The notes under the pieces are model-generated. The model was not told where the DNA came from, searched no databases, and saw nothing but the letters and a program-made list of their open reading frames with translations. Shown piece after piece: positions 36,001 through 64,000 of a stretch of 64,000 bases of DNA. Position numbers and translations under genes: made by a program. The first letter of the stretch is position 1. Each line of letters begins with the position of its first letter. This DNA comes from Centroscyllium fabricii (taxonomy: Eukaryota), in assembly GCA_051313645.2 (NCBI GenBank), contig JBNRSN020000012.1, forward strand, positions 2,604,001 through 2,668,000. The letters run 5' to 3'.

Positions 36001-36278
36001 GTGAGAGTGTGGGAGGATCTCAATGAAGAGTGAGAGTGTGGGAGGAGCTCAGTGAAGAGTGAGCGTGTGGGAGGGACTCAGTGAAGAGTGAGTTTGTGGG
36101 AGGAGCTCAGTGAAGAGTGAGTGTGTGGGAGGGACTGAGTGAAGAGTGAGAGTGTGGGATGAGCTCAGTGAAGAGTGAGAGTGTGGGAGGGACTCAGTGA
36201 AGAGTGAGAGTGTGGGGGGAGCTCAGTGAAGAGTGCCCGGCCTGCTAGTCTAGAACGCCCGATCCCAAATCGACCTCG

Positions 36279-36311
<33 letters not shown>

Positions 36312-45300: not shown

Positions 45301-45326
45301 GAGAGTGCGGGAGGATCTCAGTGAAG
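1..45326. repeat. 29-bp G-rich satellite array (~1,550 monomers), consensus GAGTGAGAGTGTGGGAG(GAGCTC/GGACTG/GGACTC)AGTGAA; runs off the left edge
   Basis: Continuous 29-nt periodicity read directly. It ends abruptly at ...GGATCTCAGTGAAG|TTAAAGG (45326). The only foreign insert is at 36236-36457. Confidence 0.98.
36236..36457 (+). mobile_element. 5S rRNA-derived SINE (SINE3 type) with (AAG)n tail, inserted in the satellite
   Basis: 5S-like head with A box AGCTAAGCAG (36281), intermediate element GGTCAGT (36301) and C box TGGATGGGAG (36311). Then a ~95-bp non-5S body and tail GATAAGAAGAAGA. TSD AGTGAAGAGTG at 36225-36235 and 36458-36468. Confidence 0.9.
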
Positions 45327-45889
45327 TTAAAGGACTTTGGAACGTGCTGGAACAATGCTTGGGGCATCTGATCCAATCGGAATCTATAGAAATTGCATTC
45401 GAAGTGTTTAAGAATATTTTGAATGGACATATTTCCAGCAGCCACTGATAGAAAAAAAGCTGGGAGTAAAAGAAGTACAGTAGTGAGTGCAGCTGGAGGT
45501 TGTGCTTTGCTCATGAAGGAATTCCCAGCTGGAGAAATCCCCGGCTTTTTGCACAGCGGATATTGCTGTGAAATCCAGATGTTGCCAATTACTAGATTGC
45601 AAACGGTTGGAATTCTGGGATTTGTCATTCAATGTGCCTATTTCACCACATTTTGCACATGTTGACGATGGTCATTGGAGAATTCCGGGAATTCTGCTGT
45701 CGATTGAGTTATCCTTTAGTTATCCAGCGCTGGGCAAGATACAAGACAAATCTTGCTATCTGACAGGTAATCACTCTCTAAACTCTAGCCTCCAACCTCA
45801 CTGTCCATCAGAACCATCCCTCTCTCTCACTCTGGTTTATCAACTCAATGACACACTTTGCCCCTTAAATCTTCCTCTCTTGTTCCTTT

Positions 45890-45946
45890 TATTTAATTAA
45901 TTCGCTGGATGTGGGCATCACTGGCAAGGCCAGAATTTATTGCCTA
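45890..45946 (-). mobile_element. Short terminal fragment of a shark-type LINE/SINE (CR1/L2 group)
   Basis: GGATGTGGGCATCACTGGCAAGGCCAGAATTTATTGCC resembles a repeat end I recall as common in chondrichthyan genomes; recognition only. Confidence 0.45.
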
Positions 45947-46021
45947 TTTATCCTTTTAAATTCCAGATGTTCTTTCTTCACACACTTCCTGCTCCCTACG
46001 TCCCCAGTGTGTTGAAGTCTC

Positions 46022-46169
46022 AGCACATTATGGCTCAGTGGGTAACAGTCTCGCTCTCTGATTCAGAAGGTTGTGGGTTCAAGATCATTTCAGACACTTG
46101 AGCCCTTAACCTAATCTGACACTTAAGTGCAGTACTGAGGGAGCGCTGCACTGTCGGAGGTGCCGTCTT
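46022..46169 (+). mobile_element. 5' part of a SacSINE1-like DeuSINE (tRNA head and start of Deu domain), cut off by CR1
   Basis: A box TGGCTCAGTGG, B-box-like GGTTCAAGATC, then GCAGTACTGAGGGAGCGCTGCACTGTCGGAGGTGCCGTCTT. Homologous to 48395-48540 and 60585-60612. Confidence 0.8.
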
Positions 46170-46170
46170 G

Positions 46171-46593
46171 AACATAAGGAAAAGGAACAGGAGTCGGCCA
46201 TTTGGCCCCTCGAGCCTGCTCCGCCATTCAATAAGATCATGGCTGATCTACTACCTCAACTCCACTTCCCCGCACGATCCCTTGATTCGCTTAATATCCA
46301 AAAATCTATCGATCTCTGTCTTGAATATACTCAACGACTGAGCCTCCACAGCCCTCTGGGGTAGAGAATTCCAAAGATTCACCACCCTCTGAGTGAAGAA
46401 ATTCCTCCTCATCTCAGTCCTAAATGACCGACCCCTTATTCTGAGACTGTGACCCCTGGTTCTAGACTCCCCAGCCAGAGGAAACATCCTCTCAGCATCG
46501 ACCCTGTCGAGCCCTGTAAGAATTCTGTATGTTTCAATGAGATCAACTCTCATTCTTCTAAACTGTGGAGAATATTGGCCTAGTCTACTCAAT
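46171..46593 (-). mobile_element. CR1 (HER1-like) LINE 3' fragment
   Basis: ORF2 C-terminus ...RRMRVDLIETYRIL...TRGHSLRI...RRNFFTQRVVNLWNSLP, followed by a CR1-type 3' UTR and tail. Confidence 0.9.
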
Positions 46594-46726
46594 TTCAATG
46601 AAAACTGGAGCTGGTGAGGAGCCTGTGAGCTCCCGGTCACAGGAAACGCCTCACTGCTTCTCTTAAAGCTGCATCGGTAAATATAACTTCATTATAGTTT
46701 TGTATTTGTGTCTTTCTTCTGTTTGA

Positions 46727-46902
46727 CCCCAGAGGGCTGTGGATGCCGAAACGTTGAGTATATTTAAGGCTGAGATCAGTAGCTGTTTGGACTCGAGGGG
46801 AATCGAGGGATATTGGGATCGGGCGGGAAAGTGTTGAGGTTGAAGATCAGCCTGGATCTTATTGAATGGCGGAGCAGACTCGAGATTCCGAATGGCTGGC
46901 TC
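46727..46902 (+). mobile_element. CR1 3' fragment (opposite orientation)
   Basis: CCCAGAGGGCTGTGGA...GATCAGCC..GATCTTATTGAATGGCGGAGCAG is the reverse complement of the flanking CR1 3' ends. Confidence 0.85.
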
Positions 46903-48187
46903 ACAAGAACATAAGAACAAACGAGATAGGAGCAGGAATAGTCCACTTGGCCCCTCGAGCCTGCTCCGCCATTCAATAAGATCATGGCTGATCTTGGGCT
47001 CAAAGCCACTTCCCTGCCTGCTCCCCATAATCCTTCACTCCCTTATCTTGCAAAAATCTGTCTATCTCCACCTTAAATGTATTTAATGACCCAGCCTCCA
47101 TGGCTCTCTGGGGCAGAGAATTCCACAGATTTACGACCCTCTGAGTGAAGAGATTTCTCCTCATCTCAGTTCTAAAAGGGCGATCGCTTATTCTGAAACT
47201 ATGCCCCCGGGTCCTAGATTTCCCCACGAGGGGAAACATCCTCTCAGCATCTACCCTGTCAATCCCCCTCAGTATGTTATATGTTTTAATAAGATCCCCT
47301 CTCATTCTTCTAAACTCCAATGAGTATCGGCCCAACCTGCTCAACCTTTCCTTATAAGTCAACCCCCTAATCTCTGGAATTAACCGTGTGAATCGTCTCT
47401 GAACTGCGTCCAATGCAAGTATATCCTTCCTTAAATAAGGAGACCAAAACTGTACGCAGTGCTCCAGGTGTGGTCTCACCAATACCCAGTACAGTTGTAG
47501 CAGAACTTCCTGCTTTTATACTCCAACCCCCTTGAAATAAAGGCCAACATTCCATTTGCCTTTTTGATTTCTTGCTGTACCTGCTGCTAACTTTTTGTCT
47601 TTCATGCACAAGGACCCCCAGGTCCCTCTGAACTATAGCCTTTTGTAATCTCTCTCCGTTTAAATAATAATTTGCTTTTTTATTTTTCCTGCCAAAGTGG
47701 ATAACCTCGCACTTTCCCACATTATACTCCATCTGCCAAATGTTTGCCCTGTCTCCTAGCCTGTCTATATCCCTTTGCAGATTCTTTGTGTCCTCTGCAC
47801 AACTTGCTTTCCCACCCATCTTTGTATCATCTGCAAACTTGGCTACATTACACTCGATCCTTTCATCCAAGTCATTAATGTAGATTGTAAATAGTTGGGG
47901 CCCCAGCACCGATCCCTGTGGCACCTCACCAGTTACCGTTTGCCAATCAGAAAATGACCCATTTATCTCAACTCTCTGCTTTCTGTTAGTTAGCCAATTC
48001 TCTATCCATGCTAATATATTACCCCCATTCCAAGATGTCTGATCTTATGCAGTAACTTTTATGTGGCACGTTATCGAATGCCTTCCAGAAATCCAAATAC
48101 ACCACATCTACTGGTCCCCATTTATCCACCCTACTCGTTACATCCTCAAAGAACTCCTGCAAATTTGTTAAACATCATTTGCTTTTC
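46903..48187 (-). mobile_element. 5'-truncated CR1 LINE with frameshifted reverse transcriptase (RT)
   Basis: RT motifs PQGSVLGP and FADD (ORF 47367-47924), C-terminus VRPHLEHCVQFWSP...WNSLP (ORF 47000-47482), then 3' UTR and tail. Confidence 0.93.
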
Positions 48188-48189
48188 AG

Positions 48190-48310
48190 AAGGTCAAAGA
48201 TCAGCCATGATCTTACTGAATGGTGGAGCAGACGCGAGGGGCCGAATGGCCTACTCATACAAACATAAGAAATAGGACCAGCAATAGGCCACGTGGCCCC
48301 TCGGGCTCCT
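48190..48310. mobile_element. Two short CR1/HE1-type 3' ends joined tail to tail (+48190-48256, -48257-48310)
   Basis: GATCAGCCATGATC...GAATGGCCTACTC followed by AACATAAGAAATAGGACCAGCAATAGGCCACGTGGCCCCTCG. Confidence 0.75.
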
Positions 48311-48507
48311 GGTCCTCATTCATATGTTCGTATAGATCGATTTTAAAGTGTGGCTCTTGTGGTCTATTCTGTTCCAGCGCCTTTATTCATTGTTGCAGCC
48401 TGTGGCTCAGTGAGCAGCACTCTCTCTCACTCGCCTCTGAGTCAGAAGGTTGTGGGTTCAAGACCCACTCCAGAGACTTGAGCACAAAATATAGGCTGAC
48501 ACTCCCA

Positions 48508-49023
48508 GTGCAGTACTGAGGGAGTGCAGCACTGTCGGAGGGGCAGTACTGAGGGAGTGCAGCACCGTCGGAGGGGCAGTACTGAGGGAGTGCTGCACTG
48601 TCGGAGAAGCAGTACTGAGGCAGTGCAGCACTGTCGGAGGGGCAGTACTGAGAGAGTGCAGCACTGTCGGAGGGGCAGTACGGAAAGTGTGCTGCACTGT
48701 CGGAGAGGCAGTACTGAGGGAGCGTTGCACTGTCGGAGAGGCAGTACTGAGGGAGTGCTGCACTGTCAGAGAGGCAGTACTGAGGGAGTGCTGCACTGTT
48801 GGAGGGGCAGTACTGAGGAAGCGTTGCACTGTCAGAGGGGCAGTATCGAGGGAGTGCTGCACTGTCAGAGGGGCAGTACTGAGGGAGCGCCGCACTGACA
48901 GAGCGGTAGTACTGAGGGAGCGCTGCACTGTCGGAGAGGCAGTACTGAGGGAGAGCCGCACTGTCGGAGGGGCAGTACTGAGGGAGTGCAGCACTGTCGG
49001 AGGGGCAGTACTGAGGGAGCACC
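48508..49023. repeat. 32-33-bp minisatellite GCAGTACTGAGGGAGTGCTGCACTGTCGGAGGG (~16 units) derived from the SINE interior
   Basis: Direct tandem periodicity. It continues at 59944-60052 and 60429-60600. Confidence 0.95.
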
Positions 49024-49995
49024 TGTAAGGTCGCAATATTACAGATTCAGAAAGATCCATAAAAGACAAGAGACAGATGGTTGGATTGAACATTTTTATT
49101 GAGCAGATAGCAGCAGAGGAAAACAAGCTGCGGCTTGATGAAAGGGAAGGGGCCCCAAAAGATGGCCACCGGACCACATGACAAGACGGCCAGAGCCAAA
49201 AACGAAACTACAGAAATAGTTTTACAGTCCTGCAGAAAGCCCGCGAAAACCCAGACATGGAGGCGCCGAAAACCAATATTTGATTATAAAGAACTGACCA
49301 GCTCCCCTCAGAACCGTTTAGCCCAACAATGAAAAATGCACCCAGATAATAAGCGCCTAATATGCTGCAAATATAGACTAACTGGCCCTAAATAGCCAGG
49401 CTTAGAAACTGCACAGCAAAGTTAGCAAGAAGCAATTTGCACCCGATCTAAACAATGCAGCGCTCACAGAAGCAGTTAGGATGGCTCTCAAACCATCCCC
49501 AGCAGGTTAGCTGGACAAAGAATGCTTAAACCGTTTTTAATAAGACAATACATTTCAATGATTGGCAAGGCATTAAGCACTCAACATTTTGGGTATAACT
49601 TCAGACATTTTGGACAGTTCGCTCTCTTATGACTCTGATCTCTCTTACGACTCGTGGGAAGCTCTTAGCTCAGCTCTCTTAGCTCTTCGCTCTTGGGAAA
49701 AGACGTTAGGTACAGTTCTCTTTTCGGTTGACTCTCTGGAAGAGGGGGTCTCATGGAATCTTGATCTCGAAAACTTGAAGGAAGGCTCTTGGAAGGAGCT
49801 CTTGGACTGTTTCAGCAGTGACTTTGCTGGGGTTTCTCTTCGGAGGCTCCCGTTCAGATCTCTGGGTGCAGGGCAAGCAGGGTGCAGGTTCTGGCAGGGC
49901 AGTGGTATCGCATCAGGGCTGGGATCATCGCTGGGGTAGTTGGTCGTTGGGCTCCGTAAAGCGAAGTGCTGGCAGCAGTAGGACTCTTTGCCCCG

Positions 49996-50001
49996 TATAA
50001 A
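49996..50001 (+). promoter_or_regulatory. Candidate LTR TATA box
   Basis: CCCG-TATAAA-GAAG in the middle of the LTR, present in both LTRs. The start site is not verified. Confidence 0.5.
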
Positions 50002-50562
50002 GAAGCGAAACAAGGCACTGGAGACAAGGCGTCCGAAGCAGGGGCCAAAGCGAGTGAGTTAGAAAAGACTTGTTACAGTTTGGCTCGAGAGGGCAGGATC
50101 GGCATACCACAGGGTCCGGTTCAGCCAGGGAGAAGGTGCGGTCTGGTGTGAGGTAGAAGAACCCTTGAGAGACCTGCCCGGGACCAGCCCGAGCAGACCC
50201 AGCCGCCGCCAAGAGGGAGAAGCAAACAAGTGGACTCCCGAATCTTCCACAGCCACGTGACGACCGACGCTGCAGCCGAAGGACGAAGAACTTCATAGCT
50301 GACCCCGAGTTTGACTGAGTGGTGAGCATGTGCCCCGATCCTACACACCTGGACATAGCTAGGCAATAGAGGGGAGGGTGGTTTATTTGGTTAATCTTTA
50401 GAGTGTTTGCCCTCTTTTTCGATGTGCCGTGCGTTCCCCATCCTATAAGTTAATTGCGTATGTCGGATAGCTATATTTTGGGCTACGAATGTTTACATTT
50501 TATACTGTTGTTGATATATGACATACAAGTCGATTGATGTGTATGAACTTGTGATCTGCTAT

Positions 50563-50568
50563 AATAAA
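50563..50568 (+). promoter_or_regulatory. Candidate LTR polyadenylation signal (copy in the 3' LTR at 59718)
   Basis: AATAAA followed by pyrimidine/GT-rich sequence. Further AATAAA motifs at 50739 and 50760. Confidence 0.55.
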
Positions 50569-50791
50569 GATCCACTTTTAAACTCTTATTCAAAGCCAAT
50601 CTGAGTCAAGTCTTTATACATCTCGTCTCTCTTCCTGCATCTAAGTCCAGCGTCGAGAACCGTAAGGGTGAGCGATTCGAACCGCTCACGGGGGAGGAGG
50701 TTTATTGCGCGAGGCCTGGCAGACGGCTAGAGCAAGGCAATAAAGGACCCCAAGTCGTGAATAAAACACACGGCGCACACCCCTTACAGAA

Positions 50792-52597
50792 ATGGTGACC
50801 ACGAAGGGACGTTGGCAGCAGGAAAGAGATGTGTTGGACTCAGCCTTGAATAAAAGAAACCAAATGGATGAGAAAATTGCTGATTATGTATTTAGTAAGG
50901 TTAACCTGACCAAGCAGTGGATTGGGGACCTGCTGGCAGACAAACGTCCACTGGACGCAGCTATCCATTGGACGGGTAGCAAGGGGCATAAAAAGTCAGT
51001 GGAGAAGGCGGTCTGGCTTATGTGCTATAAGAAGCAGGTCCAACTTTCGGACCAGGTGATTGCGGCGCAGACCGCGCAGATCAAAGGGTTAGTGCTCGAA
51101 GTGGAGGAAAAGGTCTCAGGGGGGCAGCAGTTGATCACCGCACTCGAGGCTCTGAATCGAGAGCGCCAGGTAAAGACCAGCCGCCATGAGGCCAGGGTTG
51201 AGCTCCTAGAGCGACAGGTGGTAGAGGCCATGTCGAGCGAAGGGAAGCTCAGGGAACGGTGCGTCCGCCTAAGTGGCCAGTTAAAGGCCCAGGACGAGAA
51301 TTTGCTGGGAATGAGGGCAGCATATAAGATGTCCCTCGAGACAAAGTACGAGGACGCTGATCATGGCTCCTGTTTAAAAGAGATTCAGGACCTCAGGGAG
51401 GCCCTGAGCAAGTCAAATGGCCTGGTGTGCCTCATCGACCCATCGGTGGGTGAGGTAAAAGTGGTTAAGGAACCCCCGAAGCCAAGGCAGAGGAGGGCGC
51501 CGGAGGCACCAGCCCCAGCGCTCCCCGCGCGATCACCCCATTATGCGCAAGCATGGGAGAGAGAGAACAGACAAGAGGTGGCGGCGGAGGTTCCCAAGGT
51601 GGGGGATCCGGACCCGGCACCCATGTGCCCGGTTCGAGAAACGAGGCGGGGTTCCGACACTGTGGATGGGGACCCCGGGCCCATCATGAATGAGGTTATA
51701 GTGCCCCATAGCTCGCAACAAATAAGGAGTATGATCGGACACTTTAGGAAGCTGTCCGCAGCAGGCGATCCGTCCCTGCACTTTAGAGAGGTCGAGCAGA
51801 CCGCAGCGGTAAACGGCTGCGATGAAGGGGAGCAAGCCAGGATGTTGCTTTTCTCCCTAGATAGCTCTATCCTTCAGTGTCTCTCCGACGAGAGCAAAAG
51901 GGGGGATAAGTGCTACAACGACTTACGGGACGAGGTCTTGGAAGTGTTGGGGATGGACGATGAAGGTCCGTTTGTGAGGCTGGGTAGGACCGTGCAGATG
52001 GAGGGAGAACCCCCACGGGTTTTTGCCGGGAGGCTGTGGCCTGTGTATCAGCGCAGCTGCCCAGATGTACCTGCACGGGCTGTTTTGCGCGATGCCGGGA
52101 GAGCCCAGTGGCTCCGGTGCATCGTTGCCAACAGCCTACCAGCCGTTAGAGAGCAGGCTAAGGTGTGGTTTGACCCCACCGACGCTCAGACCACAGAGGA
52201 GACGGTCCTCAACCGACTCACGGTCGGATACAAAAACACAAGAAGTTCGGTGATGCACTGCGATAAGGGGAAGGTGTATGCGACTAACGCAGACGCCCCA
52301 GTGCAGAGAGAGTGGCATCAGGAGGGGGGCAACCCGGGGCAGTCTACGTGTCATAGGTGCGGGAAGGCAGGCCACTGGCGCAGAGACTGTAGAGCCCCGT
52401 GGAGGGAGGTCAAGGAAAGAGCTCCCGCAGCCCCAGCCCGAGCACCCACTCCCACGGGAGGTGCCGGTGCGACTTTAAGTCCCGAAACGATTGAGTCCAC
52501 GCTGGGGGCCATGAAGTTGTATATGGCTTCCCAGGGGAAGGCAGCGGTTGCCACCGGTTCCGCAGGCACCGCAGCCCCTTACGTAGAAACCCAATGA
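50792..52597 (+). CDS. gag: Gag polyprotein (N-terminal coiled-coil-like region, capsid-like region, one CCHC zinc knuckle)
   Basis: Intact 601-aa ORF directly after the LTR. CHRCGKAGHWRRDC at 52349-52390. Confidence 0.92.
   Translation: MVTTKGRWQQERDVLDSALNKRNQMDEKIADYVFSKVNLTKQWIGDLLADKRPLDAAIHWTGSKGHKKSVEKAVWLMCYKKQVQLSDQVIAAQTAQIKGLVLEVEEKVSGGQQLITALEALNRERQVKTSRHEARVELLERQVVEAMSSEGKLRERCVRLSGQLKAQDENLLGMRAAYKMSLETKYEDADHGSCLKEIQDLREALSKSNGLVCLIDPSVGEVKVVKEPPKPRQRRAPEAPAPALPARSPHYAQAWERENRQEVAAEVPKVGDPDPAPMCPVRETRRGSDTVDGDPGPIMNEVIVPHSSQQIRSMIGHFRKLSAAGDPSLHFREVEQTAAVNGCDEGEQARMLLFSLDSSILQCLSDESKRGDKCYNDLRDEVLEVLGMDDEGPFVRLGRTVQMEGEPPRVFAGRLWPVYQRSCPDVPARAVLRDAGRAQWLRCIVANSLPAVREQAKVWFDPTDAQTTEETVLNRLTVGYKNTRSSVMHCDKGKVYATNADAPVQREWHQEGGNPGQSTCHRCGKAGHWRRDCRAPWREVKERAPAAPARAPTPTGGAGATLSPETIESTLGAMKLYMASQGKAAVATGSAGTAAPYVETQ
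50793..50809 (+). other. Primer binding site, probably tRNA-Arg(UCG)
   Basis: TGGTGACCACGAAGGGA lies 4 nt after the LTR. It is complementary to the vertebrate tRNA-Arg(UCG) 3' end ...TCCCTTCGTGGTCGCCA as I recall it, with one G-U pair. Confidence 0.8.
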
Positions 52598-53677
52598 CTA
52601 AGACCCGCGCTGCCCATTTACCTGTGTCCGCTCCATTATGATGCGTGGAGGAGACCTCTGGTGGAAATGGAGGTGGAGAGACAGGAGGGGAATTATCTGT
52701 TGGATACAGGGGCCTCATGCACCGTGATCCATACAGAGAAGCCGTTTAATTCCCCAATGTCCACCGGAGTCCCTTTTGCATTAGCAGGGTTTACGGGCAA
52801 GGAACAGGGGGGCGCGCGCTCTAGGCCACTCTCCGTTCAGTTAGGAGCGCTCCGCACCACGTGGGAGTGCATCCTGCTGAAATGGGAAGAAGGAGGTGGT
52901 AGAGGAATAGTCGGGGCAGATTTTCTGGGAGCACACGGGATCATGATCGACCTAAGGAACCACTGTCTATGGGCAGCCGAGAGTGGAAGAGGTGAAGTAG
53001 TGGTCATAGGGGAGGAAGAAGAGAAGGGGACCTTATGCACCATGAAGCCGTCCGGAGGTTACGACCTCGAAAGTTTGTCCAAGGGTGTTCCGGCCGACAT
53101 GCATGCGGCCGTGACTTATAATATAAACGCCTTTGCGACCCATAAGCACGATTGCGGGAGGGTCCTAGGGTTTGAGGTTAGTGGGCAGGGGGATCCCATG
53201 TCCCGACCCCAGAAACAGTATAACTTCCCTAAGGAAGCTGAGTCCGATCTGGAGACAGTGATGTCTTCACTGGTGCGGCAGGGCGTGTTGAGGCCGATAG
53301 CCACCCATGTGAACTCTCCGTTGTGGCCCGTGAGGAAGCCGGACAACTCATGGAGAGCCACGGTGGATTACCGGGTCCTCAACAGTAACATTCCCGCCTG
53401 CGCACCCACGGTGGCAGCAGTTGCCGACCTGATGGGAAGTATTCCCGCTTCCGCGACGGTGTTCACGGTGTTGGATATTTCCAACGGGTTTTGGTCCATC
53501 CCGCTGCGGAGGGAGGACCAGTACAAGTTTGCCTTTACTTTTAAAGGGCAGCAGTACACATGGAACTGCCTACCACAAGGCTTCCACAACAGCCCCAGCA
53601 TTTTCCACCAGTGTATGGCAGGGAGTTTAAAGGAGTTTAGCCAGCCCAATCAGATAGTGCAGTATGTGGACGACTTT
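52598..53677 (+). CDS. pol: Pol part 1: aspartic protease and RT (in frame with gag)
   Basis: LLDTGAS (52703), NSPLWPVRK, DYR, LDISNGFW, LPQGF, YVDD (53663-53674). Confidence 0.93.
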
Positions 53678-56600
53678 ACTTTTGTTCACGGACACTAGGG
53701 AAGAGCACTTGCCACTGCTAGGCGAGCTGCTGGAACTACTGGCTAGGAAGGGTTTTAAAATAAACCCGAAGAAGGCACGGATCGGCCAGACAGAAGTAAA
53801 ATTTCTGGGTCTAACCATCCGCGCTGGGGAAAGGGCCATAGATAAGGCCAGGAGGGAGTCGGTACAGGAGCTACCGATCCCTACCACCGTAAAGGGTGTG
53901 AGGTCCTTTTTGGGACTGACCGGGTATTGCAGAGACTTCATTGAGGACTATGCAGCCACAGCAGCGCCGCTGCTCCGACTCTTGCACAAGGGAGTTGGGT
54001 GGTCATGGGATGAGGGTTGCCAGGCGGCGTTTGAAAAGTTGAAGAGGGACCTGCAAACCGCGCCAGCCCTGGGGGCCATAGAGGGGGGGGAGGAGTTTTC
54101 CCTGGAGGTAGCTGCCAGTGAAGACAGCTTGAGTGCTGTGCTGCTCCAAGAGCGGCACGGCAAGCTGCGACCGGTAGTGTATTCCTCAAGGGTACTCACA
54201 GACGTGGAGAGGGGGTTCTCCAACTGCGAACGGCATCTTTTAGCCACGCATTGGGCCGTGAAAAGATCACTGATCTTCACGGGAACCTCACCCATCACTC
54301 TCCTCACCCACCACACACCCACCAGGATGCTCCTGGATGGAAGGATTAAGGATGGGACCGTGAGCAGCGCGAGGATTGCGCGCTGGACTCTTCTCCTGTC
54401 CCAGATGGATTTAAAGGTGGAGGGCCTGTGTGAGCCCAAGCTTGCAGCAAATTTAATGTACCCCGGAACGACCCATCGGTGTTCCGTGGAGGGGGTGTGG
54501 GAGGTGAACATAGGTCTGCGAGCCGGGATACATCCCACGGGCCGCGAGATTTATGTTGATGGTTCCAGCACGGTGGTGGCTGGCGAACGACTCACAGGCT
54601 GCGGGATTTTTGACCCTACGGCAGACATTGCCTTGGCGGTTAAGCTTCCCCGCACCATGAGCGCGCAGCAGGCCGAGCTGTCGGCGGTGGCGTACGTGGT
54701 AACCCACCCCGAGACCTTCCCAACCCCGTACACAATTTGCTCAGATAGCATGTTCACGTGCAACTCGTGCACGGAGTATCTAGCCATATGGTCACGTCGC
54801 GGGTACACTTCCGCGGACGGGCGACCATTAACGGTAAAGCCCTTGTTGGAGAAGATCCTAGCGGCAGTAGGGGAAGCAGGGGAGATCTTCATCCACAAGG
54901 TGAAGGCTCACTCTTCCACGGAACCCCGTGGGGGAGGCAATCAGCGGGCGGATGCACTGGCCAAGGAGGGTGCGCGTGAAGGCACTTTCTGGGACCCCTA
55001 TGGGTCCGGGCCCGTGGCCGCGATCCGGGATAAGGAGGGGAACCGCCCCAGGGTACCCCTGCCTTTGGACCTAAAGATGGTTCAAACCCAGGATCCCGTT
55101 TTAAAAGCTGTCCTCAAGGCTATTAGCGAGGACAAGCAGGTAGAGGGCCCGTACAGTAGGGCGACCCTCTCCGTTAAGGAAGGAATGTTGTTCAGGGAGG
55201 AACAGTGGGTTGTGCCGCAGCAGCACAGGAGGGAATTCCTCCAACTGGCTCACGAGGGTCCAGGAGCAGGGCACCCCGGGCCAGAGGTTACGTGGCAACG
55301 GGTAGAGCAGGCAGGGTGGTGGCCGGGACTCAGGGAAGATGCCCGCGAGTTCTGTGCAAGCTGCCTGGTGTGCGCTGCGAACAACCCAGACCCCCAAAGG
55401 AGGAAAGCGCGGATGGGACACGTCAGGAGGGTGGAGGGACCATGGCAGTCGATACAAGTCGACTATATAGGGCCCCTACCCACCGCCCAGGGAGGCTATA
55501 AGTATTGTCTCGTCCTGGTGGACGTGTTCTCCAAGTGGGTGGAAGCTTTCCCCTGTAGGACGGCTACAGCCTTAGGTACTGCCAGGATCTTGGTCCGGGA
55601 GGTGTTCTCACGGTGGGGACTTCCCCGTTTTGTGGAGTCTGACCAGAGGAGTCACTTCACCGGCCAAGTGATGCAGAACACCCTCATGCTCTTAGGCATC
55701 GAAGGGAAATGGCACGTAGCGCACAACCCCCAGTCGTCAGGGATTGTGGAACGCATGAACCGAACCCTTAAGGAACGGTTGAGGAAAGAGGCTATGGGCT
55801 CGCCCCAGAAATGGGCGGAGATCCTGCCTTTAGTCCTCATGGGGATCAGGGCCAGCCAGTCGAAAAGTACGGGGTATTCCCCGCACGAGTTAATGACTGG
55901 AAGGGCCATGCGCACCCCCACTCATGTACTAGCCCCGGTGCTCATGGAAGGCCAGCTCGAAGAGGTAAAGAAGGACAGGTTTGCCCAAAATCTGTTCGAG
56001 CACCTAAAGCAAGTACATGAGCAGGCAGCAGGGAACATGGGCAGACAGCATCAGGGGAACAAGCTGTTGCTGGAGCCCCGAAGAACGCAAGAATGGGAAG
56101 TAGGAGACCTGGTCATGGTGAGGAACTATGCCCGGGTAGGGAGTTTAGAGCCACTGTACATGGGGCCCTACAGTATTGTAGACAAGGCAAGCCCCATGGT
56201 GTATGCGGTGAAGGTGCCCCGACGCACGAAGTGGTTTCATATTAACCAATGCAAAAGGTATAAGTCGGGCACGCAGGGGTCGACCACAGGGGCAAGCCCT
56301 GTGAGTGGGAACGCCCAGCCAAGTGTAGGACCACAGGTCGCGCAGGCAGGTAAAGTAGCCTGCGTGAGAGGAGAGGCCCCTATGGAGGAGCGGAGGGTCT
56401 CCCGTGCTGTGTGGGATTCAGATGGGGAAGAGCCGGACCAACACGACCAAGTGTTGGACCCAATTGACCAACACGACCAAGTGTTGGACCTGACTGACCA
56501 ACACGACCAAGTGTTGGACCCAGTCACAAAGGAGAAGGAGGGGTCGGAGGACGGGGGTTCCGTTCTCGACTCAAGTGCCGAAGAGGTAGGGATAGCGGGC

Positions 56601-57194
56601 GGAGACTCACCACCTTGGGAGACAGGTGAGATGAGGTCGGAAGCCGCAAGAGATCCCAGTCCCGGGGAAGCGAAGCTGGAGGAGGGAGGGTCGGTGCTGG
56701 CAGCTGTGAAGGAGTCACAGGCTGCAGCACGACCTGGCCCGGCCTTCAGTTCGTCGACGAGGCGAGAGGAGGGAACGTCGGTGCTGGCAGCTGTGAGGGA
56801 GTCACAGGCTGCAGCACGACCTGGCCTGGTCCTCAGGTCGTCGGCCCAGGGGACTCTCGGTCCCAGGGAAGCGAAGCTGGAGGAAGGGAGGCCGGTGCTG
56901 GCAGCTGTGAAGGAGTCACAGGCTGCAGCATGACCTGGCTCGGTCCCCAGTTCGTCAGCGGAGCTGGTGGAGGGAACGTCGGTGTTGGCAGCTGTGAAGG
57001 AGTCACAGGCTGCAACACGGCCTGGCCCGATCCTCAGTTCGTCGGCCCAGGGGGCAGTACCTAAAAGCATCCTTCGTCGATCGGATAGGAAATCCCAGCC
57101 CAGGAAGGCTTGGCCAGAACCGTCCTATGCCCTCAGGTATAGGGACAGAACAGGGGGAAAAAGCCCCCGCCAAAGAATAATTGTATACCCCTGA
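53676..57194 (+). CDS. pol: Pol part 2: RT thumb, tether, RNase H, integrase and repetitive tail (after a 1-nt frameshift; in-frame TGA at 56931)
   Basis: FLGL and SFLGLTGY motifs. RNase H YVDGS/QAEL/SDS/KAH/GNQRAD. Integrase HHCC, D(55461) D(55641) E(55749) and GPY. The same frame continues past 56933 to 57194. Confidence 0.9.
56436..56525 (+). repeat. 3 x 30-bp tandem repeat (DQHDQVLDPI), each with a CCAACAC/GTGTTGG hairpin
   Basis: GACCAACACGACCAAGTGTTGGACC repeated three times. Confidence 0.93.
56665..57052 (+). repeat. 4 palindromic repeats (VLAAVKESQAA) spaced 87/114/87 bp
   Basis: GTGCTGGCAGCTGTGAAGGAGTCACAGGCTGCAGCAC cores at 56694, 56781, 56895 and 56982. Confidence 0.93.
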
Positions 57195-57504
57195 CAAGCA
57201 GCAACAGGCTGCGGGGGACCAAAGGCAAGGGCCAGCGACGCACCGCCACAGGGAGCGGCCCGCTGCGACCCTGACACGGGATAGGTAGGCTGCCCGGGAG
57301 AGGCAGCACTGTAATATAGTTGTGGATAAGTTTCGATAATGTTAAGGGAATAGCCCGAATTAAGTTTTGAATTTTAATGGTTTAGCATAAGGACAGCGGG
57401 AGTGTTTAGCTAATATTGGATCTGTCCAGGATGTGTGCGCATCTCACCACAGCCAGGCACTCTTGGGAGGCCGGCACCCCTTTGTTTAGTTGCAGGACCT
57501 GAAG

Positions 57505-57980
57505 ATGTGGAGATTCTGGTGACGCTCGCGGTCATCAGAGATGGACTGGCCTATCGGGGCCACACCGGGGAGTAAGAGGTGGAGGAAACAACCACCTACT
57601 CCCACGAGGGCAGATGACCAGGACGGCTGGGAACGGACTCAATGGAGCATTCCAGCACGTCGGAGTTTGCCCGCAGAGGGACTTGTTTGTTGTGCCCCGG
57701 ATTAAGATCGTCGCACCCAGAACCAGCGCTATCATCGGCAGAAGGACTTGTTCGGTGTGGGATGGAAAGATCTCAGCGAGCCGATGGTGGTGGCTACGGA
57801 AGACCGCCAGAACGCTTGAAAGACTTTTGGGACAAATGGTGGGATTTGATGAGGGGATATGTGTGTGGGTTGCGGATTTTTCGGTTGTTTGTGTGATTTT
57901 CCTTTATGACAATAAAAGATGTGTACAGGTGGAGACGAAGGCATCGGCCTGGCAGACGTGGAAGGAACCAGGAGGTGTAA
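57505..57980 (+). pseudogene. Possible degenerate small membrane-protein/env remnant
   Basis: Acceptor-like TTTGTTTAGTTGCAG, then an ATG and hydrophobic ILVTLAVI. Later FWDKWWDL, a hydrophobic stretch and RWRRRHR. Broken by stops and frameshifts. Confidence 0.3.
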
Positions 57981-58166
57981 GAAACTGTTATGTACATATC
58001 TGTTGCCCAGGGTGGAGGCAATGCGAGGTTGACCAAAGGGAATGGGAACCGCATGTGTCATGGGGCAGGAGTTAGTTTAAGTTTCAGGGAAGTTGAGGTG
58101 TGGAGAATCGGGTAATCTTGCTCAACCTTTTATTTAATTGATTCGCTAAGCGGGGTTATGCTAATC

Positions 58167-58178
58167 AACAGGAGGGAC
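58167..58178 (+). other. Polypurine tract
   Basis: AACAGGAGGGAC immediately 5' of the 3' LTR. Confidence 0.75.
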
Positions 58179-59943
58179 TGTAAGGTCGCAATATTACAGA
58201 TTCAGAAAGATCCATAAAAGACAAGAGACAGATGGTTGGATTGAACATTTTTATTGAGCAGATAGCAGCAGAGGAAAACAAGCTGCGGCTTGATGAAAGG
58301 GAAGGGGCCCCAAAAGATGGCCACCGGACCACATGACAAGACGGCCAGAGCCAAAAACGAAACTACAGAAATAGTTTTACAGTCCTGCAGAAAGCCCGCG
58401 AAAACCCAGACATGGAGGCGCCGAAAACCAATATTTGATTATAAAGAACTGACCAGCTCCCCTCAGAACCGTTTAGCCCAACAATGAAAAATGCACCCAG
58501 ATAATAAGCGCCTAATATGCTGCAAATATAGACTAACTGGCCCTAAATAGCCAGGCATAGAAACTGCACAGCAAAGTTAGCAAGAAGCAATTTGCACCCG
58601 ATCTAAACAATGCAGCGCTCACAGAAGCAGTTAGGATGGCTCTCAAACCATCCCCAGCAGGTTAGCTGGACAAAGAATGCTTAAACCGTTTTTAATAAGA
58701 CAATACATTTCAATGATTGGCAAGGCATTAAGCACTCAACATTTTGGGTATAACTTCAGACATTTTGGACAGTTCGCTCTCTTATGACTCTGATCTCTCT
58801 TACGACTCGTGGGAAGCTCTTAGCTCAGCTCTCTTAGCTCTTCGCTCTTGGGAAAAGACGTTAGGTACAGTTCTCTTTTCGGTTGACTCTCTGGAAGAGG
58901 GGGTCTCATGGAATCTTGATCTCGAAAACTTGAAGGAAGGCTCTTGGAAGGAGCTCTTGGACTGTTTCAGCAGTGACTTTGCTGGGGTTTCTCTTCGGAG
59001 GCTCCCGTTCAGATCTCTGGGTGCAGGGCAAGCAGGGTGCAGGTTCTGGCAGGGCAGTGGTATCGCATCAGGGCTGGGATCATCGCTGGGGTAGTTGGTC
59101 GTTGGGCTCCGTAAAGCGAAGTGCTGGCAGCAGTGGGACTCTTTGCCCCGTATAAAGAAGCGAAACAAGGCACTGGAGACAAGGCGTCCGAAGCAGGGGC
59201 CAAAGCGAGTGAGTTAGAAAAGACTTGTTACAGTTTGGCTCGAGAGGGCAGGATCGGCATACCACAGGGTCCGGTTCAGCCAGGGAGAAGGTGTGGTGTG
59301 GTGTGAGGTAGAAGAACCCTTGAGAGACCTGCCCGGGACCAGCCCGAGCAGACCCAGCCGCCGCCAAGAGGGAGAAGCAAACAAGTGGACTCCCGAATCT
59401 TCCACAGCCACGTGACGACCGACGCTGCAGCCGAAGGGCGAAGAACTTCGTAGCTGACCCCGAGTTTGACCGAGTGGTGAGCATGTGCCCCGATCCTACA
59501 CACCTGGACATAGCTAGGCAATAGAGGGGAGGGTGGTTTATTTGGTTAATCTTTAGAGTGTTTGCCCTCTTTTTCGATGTGCCGTGCGTTCCCCATCCTA
59601 TAAGTTAATTGCGTATGTCGGATAGCTATATTTTGGGCTACGAATGTTTACATTTTATACTGTTGTTGATATGTGACATACAAGTCGATTGATGTGTATG
59701 AACTTGTGATCTGCTATAATAAAGATCCACTTTTAAACTCTTATTCAAAGCCAATCTGAGTCAAGTCTTTATACATCTCGTCTCTCTTCCTGCATCTAAG
59801 TCCAGCGTCGAGAACCGTAAGGGTGAGCGATTCGAACCGCTCACGGGGGAGGAGGTTTATTGCGCGAGGCCTGGCAGACGGCTAGAGCAAGGCAATAAAG
59901 GACCCCAAGTCGTGAATAAAACACACGGCGCACACCCCTTACA
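58179..59943 (+). repeat. 3' LTR (1765 bp)
   Basis: About 8 substitutions versus the 5' LTR by eye; no indels seen. Confidence 0.97.
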
Positions 59944-60052
59944 CACCGCACTGACAGAACGGTAGTACTGAGGGAGCGCTGCACTGTCGGAGAGGCAGTA
60001 CTGAGGGAGCACTGCACTGTCGGAGGGGCAGTACTGAGGAACCACTGCACTG

Positions 60053-60428
60053 AGGACGACACGGTGGCGTAGTGGTTAGCACTGCTGCCTCGCAATTAGG
60101 AGCTCCTGGGTTCGAATCCTGCTTGGCCCAGGACCTCTCTGCGTGGAGTTTGTATGTTCTCCCCGTGTTTGTGTGGGTTTCCTCCGGGTACTCCGGTTTC
60201 CTCCCACCACCCAAAGACATGGAGGTTAGGTGAATTGGAGACACTAAAAATTGCCCATGAGTATGTGTGTGAGATATAGTTCTTAGAGTTGGGGGTGTCA
60301 GGGGATATGGGGAGAGGGTAGGAGGGTGGGTGCTGGGTTTGGATGATCAGCCATGATCTCATTGAATGGTGGGGCAGGCTCGAAGGGCCGAATGGCCGAC
60401 TCCTGCTCCTACCTTCTGTGTTTGTGTG
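60053..60428 (+). mobile_element. HE1-like V-SINE (tRNA head, V domain, CR1/HER1 tail)
   Basis: A box TGGCGTAGTGG (60065), B box GGTTCGAATCC (60109), V domain GTGGAGTTTG..TGTTCTCCCCGTG...CTCCGGTTTCCTCCCAC. The tail matches the local CR1 3' ends. TSD TGCACTG at 60046-60052 and 60429-60435. Confidence 0.88.
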
Positions 60429-61160
60429 TGCACTGTCGGAGGGGCAGTACTGAGGGAGCACTGCATTGTCGGAGGGGCTGTACTAAGGGAGTGCTTAATG
60501 TCTGAGGGGCAGTACAGAGGGAGCTCTGCACTGTTGATGGGGCAGTACTGAGGGAGCGGCGCACTGTCGGAGGCGCAGTAGAGGGTGCGCTGCACTGTCG
60601 GAGGTGCCGTCTTTCGGATGAGACCTGATACCGAGTCCCTGTCTGCCCTCTCAGGTGGACGTAAAAAATCCCTTGGCACTATTTGGAAGAAGAGCAGGGG
60701 AGGTCTCTCTGGGTCCTGACAAGTATTTATCCCTTAATAATATCGCTGGTCATTTAGTTCATTGCTGTTTGTGGGGGCTTGCTGTGCACAAACTGGCTGC
60801 TGTGTCTCCTATGTTACCTCAGTGGCAATTGTTCAAAGGTACTTCATTGGCTGTAAAACGCTTTGGGATGTCCTGTTTTCATAAAAGGTGCTGTAGAAAT
60901 GCGAGATCTTCCACCGGCCACAGCTGTTCACTGCCCTGTGTAACAACCCCTGCTGCGTGGATCGACCTTCCTTTAAAGATTCTCTGGTGTTCTGGGAGCC
61001 GGAGGACGGTTGATTCTGTGGATTTATCAGCGAAGGAGAGGCTGCTCTCCAGGTTGGGGCTGAGCTCTCAGTGTCAGTTGGGTGTCAAAGTAGCAAAGAC
61101 ATCTCGACAGGTTGGAGGTGGAGTTTGAAGGAGTCCATGTACCCAGATGGTCAGTCAGCA

Positions 61161-61662
61161 CTGGTCACTCACTGTGATTGTCACTCAGTGTGATGGTCAC
61201 TCACTGTGATGGTCACTCACTCTGCTGGTCACTCACTGTGATGGTCACTCACTGTGATGGTCGCTCACTGCGATGGTCACTCACTCTGCTGGTCCCTCAC
61301 TGTGATGGTCACTCACTGTGCTGGTCACTCTGTGTTGGTCACACACTCTGCTGGTCACTCACTCTGCTGGTCACTCACTGTGATGGTCACTCGCTCTGCT
61401 GGTCACTCACTGTGATGGTCACTCACTGTGATGGTCACTCACTGTGCTGGGCACTCACTGTGTTGGTCACTCACTGTGTTGGTCACTCATTGTGATGGTC
61501 GCTCACTGTGAGGGTCTCTCATTGCGATGGTCACTCACTGTGATGGTCACTCACTGTGAGAGTCACTCACTGTGATGGTCACTCACTCTGCTGGTCACTC
61601 ACTGTGATGGTCATTCACTGTGAGGGTCACTCACTGTGAGGGTCACTCACTGTGATGGTCAC
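61161..61662. repeat. 16-bp minisatellite TGGTCACTCACTGTGA / TGGTCACTCACTCTGC (~31 units)
   Basis: Direct tandem periodicity. Confidence 0.95.
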
Positions 61663-61669
61663 CCTCTGT

Positions 61670-64000
61670 AATTAAATTAAATTCAAATCTATTCCAATTG
61701 CTTTATTGGCATGACAAGATACATCTTATGTTGCCAAAGCACAGAAAAAGGACATATACAATTGAACACACAAATGCAGAACTAGACATACAGTGAATGG
61801 ATAACTATGCAAACACATACATATATACCCACATATAAACCTTATATACTCTTCTTAGCTTCAGTGGTCACTGGTTGTCCCTCTGCTTATGGTAAGCTGT
61901 GACGTAGTTTGCCGCTAATTTTATACAGTCCCTCTGTTCCCCCAATAGATATGGGAGTTTTGGTGGTCATTCAAATTTTTGAATTGAGGGCATGTTTTTA
62001 AGAATCTTGGGTAGAAATTCCCACTTATGCCCTGATAGTTTTCACAAGTTTTGAGGAAATGCAGCTCTGTGTCCATCACTCCCTGACTGCAGTGAGAGCA
62101 CAGCCTTTCCTCTCTGGGCAGCCAAGTCTGTCTGTGTCTGCCTTTTTCGATGGCTAGGCTGTGCTCACTAAGTCTGTACATTGTCAGGATTTTTCTCAGT
62201 TTGCTATCTTTCACCATGGTCAGGTAATCAGCCATGGTACACTGTCTGTTTAGGGCCAAATAACAATCTAGTTTGTTTTGGGTTTTTGTCGTTTCTGTCC
62301 AGTATGTCAAATATTTTACTCTTTGTTTAGTAATAATTGTGTTGGGTCGAATTCTGTGTGCTAGGATGTCACTGTCCTGGGGCTGGTTGTTACCAATAGT
62401 GTTAGTAGTTACTTCACTGAGTCCCAGGACCAGTTGGCTGAGGGGACTTTTCTTTATGTTCACTTCTTGGCATTTCAGGGCTTTGTAGTGATAGCTGTGG
62501 GGGTTGCTCAGTTTTAGATGTTTCAAAATTTGATGGCTCTTTTTGGATATTAATTAATAGTGGATATTGGCCAAACTCTGCCCTGCATGCATTGTTTGTG
62601 GTTTTCCTCTGAGTCCGGAGGATACTTTTACAGAATTCAGCATGTAGGGTCTCAATTGGGTGTTTGTCCCATTTTGCAAATTTGTGGTGTGTTAGCGGAC
62701 CCCACACCTCACTGCCATAAAGTGCGATTGGTTCAATTACTGATTTAAAAATTTTGATCCAAATGCCAATTGGAATTTCTATTTGGATTGACTTTTTAAT
62801 GGCATAGAAAGCCCTTTTTGCTTTCTCTTTCAGTTCATTCACAGCCAAGTGAAAATTTCCCGTAGAACTGATTTTTAAGTCTAAGTATGTGTAGTTTGTA
62901 GTTTGTTCAATTTTAGTTGCTCCTAGTGTGAAGTTTGTTTTGGTTCCCTGATGTCTGGATCTTTGCTGGAACACAAGAACTTTAGATTTTTTGAGGTTTA
63001 TTGTCAAGGCCCAATTCTGGCAGAACGACTCTAGCCGATCAAAGTTCTGCTGTAGACCCTCTTCTGTTGGTGACAGCAGAACCAGGTCATCTGCATATAG
63101 GAGGAATTTAACCTCAGAGTCATATAGGGCGAGGCCAGGTGCTTAGATTGTTCCAGTAGTTTTGCCAGTTCATTTATATAAATATTAAAAAGAGTCGGTA
63201 AGATAGACGAGCCCTGTGCCACGCCACGACCCTGTGAGAAATATTTTGTTTGTTTGTCTCCGATTTTAACTGCACATTTGTTACCTGTGTACATTGATTT
63301 AATTACATCATATGTTTTTCTCCCTACCCCACTTTCAATAAGTTTTAAGAATAGACTGTCGTGCCAAGTAGAATCGAATACCTTTTGGAAATCTATAAAA
63401 CAGGCAAAAATGTTTGCTTTTGTTTTGGTGGACATGTTTGTCAATTAGGGTGTGTAGGGTGAAAATATGGTCCGATGTTCTATAATTTGGTAAGAATCCA
63501 ATTTGGCTGTTACTCAGGACATTGTGCTCCGTAAGAAAGTTTGTAAGTCTTTTGTTTATGATACTACTAAATACCTTCCCCAGATTACTGTTCACACAGA
63601 TGCCTCGGTAATTGTTTGGGTCGCGTATGTCTCCACATTTATATATGGGCGTTATGAGTCCTTTGTTCCAGACTTCAGGGAAGTAACCAACACTCAGAAC
63701 CAAGTTGAAGAGTTTTAGGATAGCCAATTTCAATTTATCATCAGTGTGTTTTAGCATCGCATTTAGTATGCCATCTGCACCACCTGCTTTTCTTGGTCAC
63801 AGGTTCTTAAGTTTTTCAGATAGCTCTCTTTCAGTTATTAAGGAGTCTAAGGGGTTTTGGTAATCCTTTATGGTCAATTCGAGCTTTTCCAATTTTTTAC
63901 ATATTTACTCTTGCTCTGGGCTTAGTGTGTGTTTCTGGTACAATTTTTCAAAATGGTTTTCCCATATCTCTCCATTTTGAATGGGCAATTCATCTTGTTG
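61670..64000 (-). mobile_element. Decayed non-LTR retrotransposon, RTE-X-like; 3' end present, runs off the right edge
   Basis: Frameshifted ORF2 with DPNNYRGI, QIGF, FIDF, GVAQG, YADD (63086-63097), YGSEVWG and C-terminal RLSEHSLAIEKGRH...CSHC...HFL..C. AATAAA at 61702-61707 (-) and an (AATTT)-like tail. The clade call is less certain than the LINE call. Confidence 0.85.

Follow-up and report, generated by a model that had tools for sequence, protein, structure and literature searches.

A probable SnRV-related class III endogenous retrovirus, defective and without recognizable env, in the genome of the shark Centroscyllium fabricii

The 64,000-nucleotide (nt) window analyzed here (Centroscyllium fabricii, assembly GCA_051313645.2, contig JBNRSN020000012.1, positions 2,604,001 to 2,668,000 of the forward strand) contains, between 49024 and 59943, an element bounded by long terminal repeats (LTRs). 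The element is very probably a defective endogenous provirus of the class III retroviruses related to snakehead retrovirus (SnRV; clade Huo), in a lineage that also includes CmiERV lineage I of the elephant shark and elements of frogs and the coelacanth. The original prediction for this DNA described a young, env-less element of a new basal lineage, adjacent to the lokiretroviruses (loki), the Odin elements, and the spumaviruses. Its recognition of a retrovirus-type element holds, based on a tether followed by a second RNase H and on a reverse transcriptase (RT) that groups with canonical retroviruses; its phylogenetic placement does not.

The placement is carried by the RT. In a comparison by eye with a published alignment, the element and SnRV have the motifs PTVA, LDISNGFWSI, LPQGFH.SP.IFHQ, and QYVDD in common, while the loki and Odin signatures SRWPM, PFGY.NSP, and EF/WNIFLHK are not found in the element RT. 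Across a 99-residue core, identity is 59/99 with SnRV, 41-49/98 with loki, and 41/99 with WEHV-1, and reaches 68/99 with CmiERV1 by hand translation and hand count from a paper supplement. Over 261 alignment columns, the identity of the element is highest with SnRV (45%), ahead of loki (35-39%), class I (32-38%), and Gypsy sequences (27-34%). Phmmer scores for the protease-RT piece follow the same leader, with 194 bits for SnRV, 86-118 for loki, 113 for WEHV-1, 118 for the best foamy chain, and 80.5 for murine leukemia virus (MLV). Maximum-likelihood trees place the element with canonical retroviruses for RT with 42 rows (support 100/98), RT with 26 rows (99/97), and RT, tether, and integrase combined with 19 rows (98/99), and loki forms its own clade (100/99-100) in these trees. 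The larger RT tree derives from 44 rows, from which P0173 and P0093 were left out as too short; for the smaller tree, 16 of the 42 rows were removed as near-duplicates or long branches or, in two cases, as a chimera with two RTs (P0121) and a class I-like sequence (P0157). For RT, a clade of the family with loki is rejected by the approximately unbiased (AU) test (p-AU 0.0225), while a clade with SnRV is not rejected (p-AU 0.325 and 0.337), nor is it recovered in the tree. Of the phylogenies suggested alongside the original prediction, that of the RT groups the element with canonical retroviruses and rejects a clade with loki; the RNase H and integrase trees were not resolved, with loki a closed 100/100 clade in both.

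At E<=1e-20, 52 proteins matched the RT. Following a database Pol that is 86% identical to that of the element, the next closest by identity are 'NYNRIN-like' Pols of frogs and the coelacanth (44-52%), and a search of 1.84 billion representatives puts this same group first. Among proteins with a named source, the nearest is from the sevengill shark Heptranchias perlo, 83% identical over 62% of the query. The frog and coelacanth Pols (Pyxicephalus, Rhinophrynus, Aquarana, Xenopus tropicalis, and Latimeria), known as unannotated proteins only, are 46-55% identical to the element in RT, 49-52% in the tether, and 45-49% in the integrase, have the same Pfam architecture, and group with it in the 42-row RT tree (82/86). 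Reference sequences were picked by name look-up (20 of 150 listed, WEHV-1, Labeo, and Leucoraja among them) and by motif. P0195 equals the published SnRV RT apart from a trimmed insert and a single residue difference seen. Loki signatures occur in P0179, P0182, P0250, and P0281. The 342 proteins fetched included none recognized as foamy, ERV-L, or Odin; P0212 matched a foamy-like motif but was set aside as class I-like. The names 'NYNRIN-like' and 'Gypsy retrotransposon integrase-like 1' (P0122-P0128, P0173, P0182, and P0002) span both loki and the class III family, and both groups are hidden because they share these misleading annotations.

Pfam calls place the pol domains in the order protease, RT, RT_RNaseH/RT_RNaseH_2, RNase_H, and the integrase zinc finger, core, and SH3-like domain (Table 1). 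As predicted, the Gypsy-like RNase H behind the RT has lost its catalytic residues: the motifs EVAAS (54105-54119), ERHLLA (54228-54245), and LTHH (54303-54314) align to the TDAS, E, and TDH positions of Gypsy RNase H rows, with all three acidic residues replaced. The second RNase H is intact, again as predicted, with DGS (54558), AEL (54672), SDS (54741), KAH (54903), and GNQRAD (54936), and from the thumb through the RNase H the protein aligns over its whole length with the RT of MLV (E=1.3e-39). The YVDD of the RT and the GPY of the integrase are likewise present, and the integrase matches Integrase_H2C2 (E=2.1e-17), rve (E=2.2e-14), and SH3_Tf2-1 (E=8.5e-5). The dual RNase H was rightly read as a retroviral feature, but all retroviruses share the combination of tether and new RNase H as a standard trait (PMC7947760, PMC9040795), and it does not mark a missing link. 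No match to Rfam was found in 45300-64000.

The LTRs differ at 8 of 1765 nt (6 transitions and 2 transversions, no indels), an identity of 99.55% that agrees with the earlier estimate by eye of about 99.5%. The Kimura two-parameter distance of 0.0045 (0.45%) corresponds to an insertion age of 1.0 million years (Myr; 0.4-2.0) at a yearly rate of 2.2e-9 substitutions per site, or to 10.3 Myr (4.4-20.3) with 2.2e-10, the rate assumed for sharks in PMC4422223. The claim of recent activity is weakened; the LTRs are comparatively young, but the RT is frameshifted and shark rates are slow. The boundaries of the element are exact, because CACC occurs on both sides and the register of the surrounding 33-nt tandem repeat carries on unbroken across the insertion. 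The primer-binding site matches 17/18 nt of a published site that PMC11905727 assigns to tRNA-Arg, although an older database labels the same sequence Trp. Other copies or solo LTRs were absent from the rest of the 64-kb window. The LTRs are unusually long compared with 705 nt in XtERV-S and ~830 nt in CmiERV1, and an antisense open reading frame (ORF) of 143 codons is open in both. Downstream of the element, a segment resembling a short interspersed element (SINE) at ~60054-60346 breaks up the target repeat.

The Gag protein consists of a heptad-rich N-terminal stretch, a helical middle resembling capsid, and a single CCHC knuckle (zf-CCHC, E=1e-4). By language-model features (Atlas), Gag resembles clusters of retrotransposon and Ty3-capsid gag proteins (best 0.93), while comparison with the PDB gave nothing informative apart from zinc knuckles, and the single-sequence structure prediction of the capsid-like region (mean pLDDT 47.6) was too low for a fold search. 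The gag gene ends in a UGA in frame with pro-pol, and its context, UGA-CUA, is listed for read-through in other viruses. We infer that Gag-Pol would be expressed through read-through of this UGA; folding of the 120 nt past the stop is no better than that of shuffles (z=0.38; 120/200 shuffles as good) and indicates no stimulatory structure. The first gag ATG (50792), 4 nt past the 5' LTR, falls across the primer-binding site, such that no leader remains, unlike CmiERV1, which has a long leader. Either translation starts at the next ATG (50864), or a leader was deleted, or packaging signals reside in the long R-U5 region or in gag.

The distance from the pol stop to the 3' LTR is 1245 nt, and no intact env was found within it, in agreement with the original prediction. 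Pfam searches of all three forward frames of 56900-58178 returned no family at E<=10, including the paramyxovirus-F type (PF00523), and an Atlas search with a 92-amino acid (aa) ORF (57618-57893) gave no usable match. When 57480-58001 was compared with proteins in the length range of 306-2000 aa, none of 308 candidates reached E<=10, which is weak evidence by the tool's own statement. This same segment holds a splice-acceptor-like pyrimidine-AG (57480-57495) with an ATG nearby and a hydrophobic stretch at ~57510, followed at ~57830-57960 by Trp-rich, hydrophobic, and basic stretches in turn; it is broken by stops and split over frames, and neither an immunosuppressive domain (ISD) nor a CX6CC motif was seen in it. 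By this pattern, and with no homology detected, the interval may represent the two ends of a deleted and decayed env, or possibly a decayed accessory gene. Secondary loss of env is more likely than primitive absence. Env loss is common among endogenous retroviruses (ERVs), therefore the missing gene lowers the case for an infectious virus and not that for an ERV.

When env was lost is a separate matter. We lean toward decay that is older than this insertion because several lesions occur within ~500 nt, yet gag is open and LTR divergence is 0.45%. The same SnRV-related family could instead have lost env in this copy alone, with siblings in the host that have a complete env and propagate through reinfection, an explanation that departs from ours on the env question only. 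It would fit with the env of CmiERV lineage I, with anamniote high-copy ERV families with gamma-type env that keep env in 66-91% of copies, and with XtERV-S, a class III family of frogs in which young, internally deleted copies are frequent. The putative remnant, broken in several places beside an open gag and young LTRs, together with the lack of any long env-like homolog among the 308 candidates (again weak evidence), makes such a private loss a reasonable but lesser possibility.

The copy as assembled cannot make a full RT and is defective, because a frameshift right after YVDD, absent from the original prediction, splits pol. The RT frame closes at 53698, and the thumb, tether, RNase H, and integrase sit in another frame (53658-56933). 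The 86% identical database Pol stays open across this position, and the frameshift therefore belongs to this copy or to its assembly. An assembly error in a pol-competent copy would be consistent with this open relative and with the short T run at which the break sits. It is nonetheless unlikely, as the 1765-nt LTRs show no indel difference, meaning that indel errors are rare here, and a further lesion, also new to this analysis, is present: a stop at 56931-56933 that interrupts the repetitive integrase tail, after which the frame is open to 57194. The tail itself contains in-frame repeats of 30 and 87/201 nt (56436-57053) that do not occur in the predicted end of the Heptranchias perlo protein.

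Several results weigh against an SnRV-related placement. No tree joins the element to SnRV with support; SnRV instead grouped with class I rows (87/82 in the 42-row and 82/86 in the 26-row tree), the base was not resolved, and the trees were built without foamy, Odin, ERV-L, ERV4, or CmiERV sequences. The grouping with frog and coelacanth Pols did not exceed 80 in either the 26-row RT tree or the 19-row combined tree, and a clade of the family with Gypsy was not rejected for RT (p-AU 0.066). The tether is 38% identical to loki vs 25% to SnRV and the integrase 40-44% vs 35%; for integrase, a clade of the family with loki was not rejected (p-AU 0.334), and one with SnRV, which sits on a long branch, was borderline rejected (p-AU 0.0486). 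The target-site duplication is 4 nt vs the 5 nt listed for ERV3/ERV4 (PMC4299795), and the putative env remnant has no homology detectable by Pfam, Atlas, or homolog searches.

The tether and integrase results, along with the unsettled base of all the trees, would also suit a mosaic, in which a canonical class III RT is combined with an integrase and tether of loki ancestry through recombination or retention, and repeated integrase replacement has been reported for retroviruses. The element would then belong to a distinct, under-described early canonical branch shared by shark, frog, and coelacanth and not be a relative of SnRV, one that shed env and amplified in the germ line within the last few Myr. 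Such a branch would be an aquatic counterpart of ERV-L and would serve as a bridge when rooting the history of retroviral integrases. However, the integrase and RNase H trees did not resolve, loki is closed in both, and slow evolution of the family accounts for the identities because the SnRV branch is long (2.58 in the integrase tree); a mosaic origin is thus rather improbable. Least probable, and largely refuted already, is a primitively env-less and currently active lineage near loki, Odin, and spumaviruses, in which the dual RNase H would be transitional. In its favor, the loki-leaning tether and integrase, a best PDB match of the RT to foamy virus, the missing env, and the 'NYNRIN-like' names of relatives (loki integrase is reported closest to CGIN1) can be cited, but it conflicts with the absent RT signatures, the rejected RT clade, the 98/99 combined tree, the score of SnRV over foamy, a CCHC gag in frame with pol, the env of the closest described relative, and the frameshifted RT.

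For an SnRV-related provirus, a replication cycle can be proposed from the motifs and from established retrovirus biology; the domains, catalytic residues, layout of LTRs, duplication, and primer-binding site, and the lesions are read directly from the DNA. The 5' LTR would drive a genomic RNA from which Gag and, through occasional UGA read-through, Gag-Pol would be made. A tRNA-Arg would prime minus-strand synthesis, the old Gypsy-type RNase H would serve as a connection domain without catalytic activity, and removal of RNA and formation of the plus-strand primer would fall to the second RNase H. About 1-10 Myr ago, the integrase would have placed the DNA in the 33-nt tandem repeat, duplicating 4 nt of the target. 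The ancestor presumably carried env, of which this copy would keep at most a short decayed remnant, and we somewhat favor a progenitor that spread within germ cells or with the Env of a helper.

The element is probably a further member of the already described SnRV-related class III (clade Huo) retroviruses. CmiERV lineage I, which is SnRV-related and carries env, has the same gag-pol architecture, and its prior description counts against a new basal lineage, as the original prediction had itself allowed. No published description of this particular family was found, in a search largely outside subscription journals, repeat databases, and the supplements of bioRxiv 2021.11.23.469661, PMC10435555, and PMC6001957. 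The importance is modest: a young, nearly complete shark member is added to a thinly sampled group of retroviruses, the elephant-shark copies being much older (about 75 Myr by the rate of PMC4422223). Should siblings also be without env, the family would add a case from Chondrichthyes to the other ERV groups in which intracellular spread is known to have followed the loss of env. The conservative tether and integrase of the family could additionally help to resolve weak nodes in integrase trees.

Table 1. Features of the element and its target site (positions in the window)
Feature	Position	Strand	Basis or detail
Whole element	49024-59943	+	LTR pair 9155 nt apart, sole pair in offset scan
5' target-site duplication, CACC (4 nt)	49020-49023	+	within 33-nt tandem repeat
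5' LTR, 1765 nt	49024-50788	+	offset scan; TG...CA ends
Candidate promoter (TATAA) and poly(A) signal (AATAAA)	49996; 50563		in 5' LTR; inferred
Primer-binding site, tRNA-Arg type	50793-50810	+	starts 4 nt past 5' LTR
gag, 601 aa, open frame	50792-52597	+	ORF list, Pfam
Aspartic protease	52598-52930	+	RVP E=3.2e-4; DTG at 52703
Reverse transcriptase	53204-54005	+	YVDD 53663-53674; frameshift directly after YVDD
Tether/connection (degenerate Gypsy-type RNase H)	54006-54404	+	RT_RNaseH_2 E=3.9e-20; RT_RNaseH E=2e-17
Retrovirus-type RNase H	54546-54974	+	PF00075 E=3.4e-19; retains D-E-D-(H)-D residues
Integrase: HHCC zinc finger, DDE core, GPY/SH3-like C-terminal domain	55212-56261	+	GPY at 56163-56171
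Low-complexity integrase tail	56270-57194	+	tandem repeats, 30-nt and 87/201-nt
Possible env remnant	57480-58001	+	hydropathy/pattern only, unproven
Short polypurine tract	58170-58177	+	adjoins 3' LTR
3' LTR, 1765 nt	58179-59943	+	offset scan
3' target-site duplication, CACC	59944-59947	+	
33-nt tandem repeat (insertion target)	48510-49019; 59964-60052; 60429-60604		

The surroundings of the element are rich in repeats. A 29-nt satellite (~1566 copies at 90% match) fills the first 45 kb of the window (1-45326) with an extreme strand skew (GC skew about 0.77). Within it, at ~36235-36460 (+), lies an insert derived from 5S rRNA (Rfam RF00001, 59.1 bits, 36240-36353) whose 3' part is unique and which ends in a short tail of AAG repeats; it looks like a 5S-derived SINE (SINE3 type) or a retroposed 5S copy. 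Fragments of a non-LTR retrotransposon RT occur at 47000-48044 (-; RVT_1, E=3.9e-11), and dispersed repeats of ~60-85 nt (46180-46995, 48190-48256, and 60345-60429) are probably SINE tails or tails of long interspersed elements (LINEs). Further downstream are a 16-nt tandem repeat of 31 copies (61162-61662) and a minus-strand ORF of 210 codons (61921-62553) that by eye resembles the C-terminal end of a LINE protein and has no Pfam match.

Among known systems, the Ty3/Gypsy elements (Metaviridae), whose Gypsy-type RNase H is single and active, are disfavored by the dead Gypsy-type RNase H here, the second RNase H, and an RT outside Gypsy in the trees. Lokiretroviruses (PMC7947760) and Odin (PMC9040795) share the tether, new RNase H, and a GPY/F-type integrase with the element. 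Odin is also without env, a state found in any env-less ERV and not diagnostic, but its RT motifs SRWPM, PFGYVNSP, and FVDD are absent from the element by eye; Odin is reported only from sea anemones (PMC9040795). Loki has a paramyxovirus-like Env, of which the element shows none (Pfam, three forward frames), and is reported in PMC7947760 from five classes that do not include Chondrichthyes (supplement row 'Chondrichthyes 3 0'). Foamy viruses, as described in PMC8278194, lack a Cys-His box and have a pol with a separate start and frame, whereas the element has a CCHC knuckle and a pol in frame with gag.

Closer on the class III side, XtERV-S/ERV-L and ERV4 share with the element the class of pol, an in-frame TGA between gag and pol, and TGT...ACA ends, and ERV-L is a precedent for env-less class III spread (PMC8278194, PMC4299795). 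Both groups have a 5-nt duplication and no CCHC, in contrast to the 4-nt duplication and CCHC here; XtERV-S/ERV-L further combine YIDD with a dUTPase, where the element has YVDD and no dUTPase match, and ERV3/ERV4 are without the GPY/F found here. Membership in ERV3 (ERV-L, XtERV-S) or ERV4 does not fit the duplication, CCHC, and GPY, and XtERV-S as the family is rejected on its YIDD, dUTPase, and missing CCHC. Zinc fingers and GPY/F do occur in ERVs related to SnRV and Ovex1 (PMC4299795), and the in-frame gag-pol stop, zinc finger, and GPY of the element match this type.

SnRV, the best-scoring described virus, has the same dual RNase H and likewise joins gag and pol by stop read-through, though its codon is UAG and not UGA, and it is exogenous where the element is endogenous. 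SnRV uses an Arg primer. Xu et al. 2018 (PMC6001957) name the SnRV group clade Huo and find it in every major lineage of vertebrates, and a preprint describes SnRV-related class III pol with gamma-type Env in anamniotes. The nearest described relative is CmiERV lineage I from scaffold 2 of Callorhinchus milii, which clusters with SnRV and was defined by its downstream env (Han 2015, PMC4422223); its member CmiERV1 was compared by eye from the supplement sequence. CmiERV1 and the element both have the motif HKHDCGR, the tether motifs LEVA and CERHLLA, a second RNase H, a CCHC gag with an in-frame TGA (CAA-TGA in CmiERV1), and a GPF/Y integrase (GPF in CmiERV1, GPY in the element). They differ in the integrase tail, repetitive in the element, in the LTRs (~830 nt and 3.3% diverged vs 1765 nt and 0.45%), in the primer-binding site, which in the element is of Arg type and overlapped by the first gag ATG, and in env, which in CmiERV1 is gamma-type with an ISD and CX6CC and in the element is not recognizable. 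Sharks host ERVs of the SnRV-related kind (PMC4422223, PMC6001957, and the preprint).

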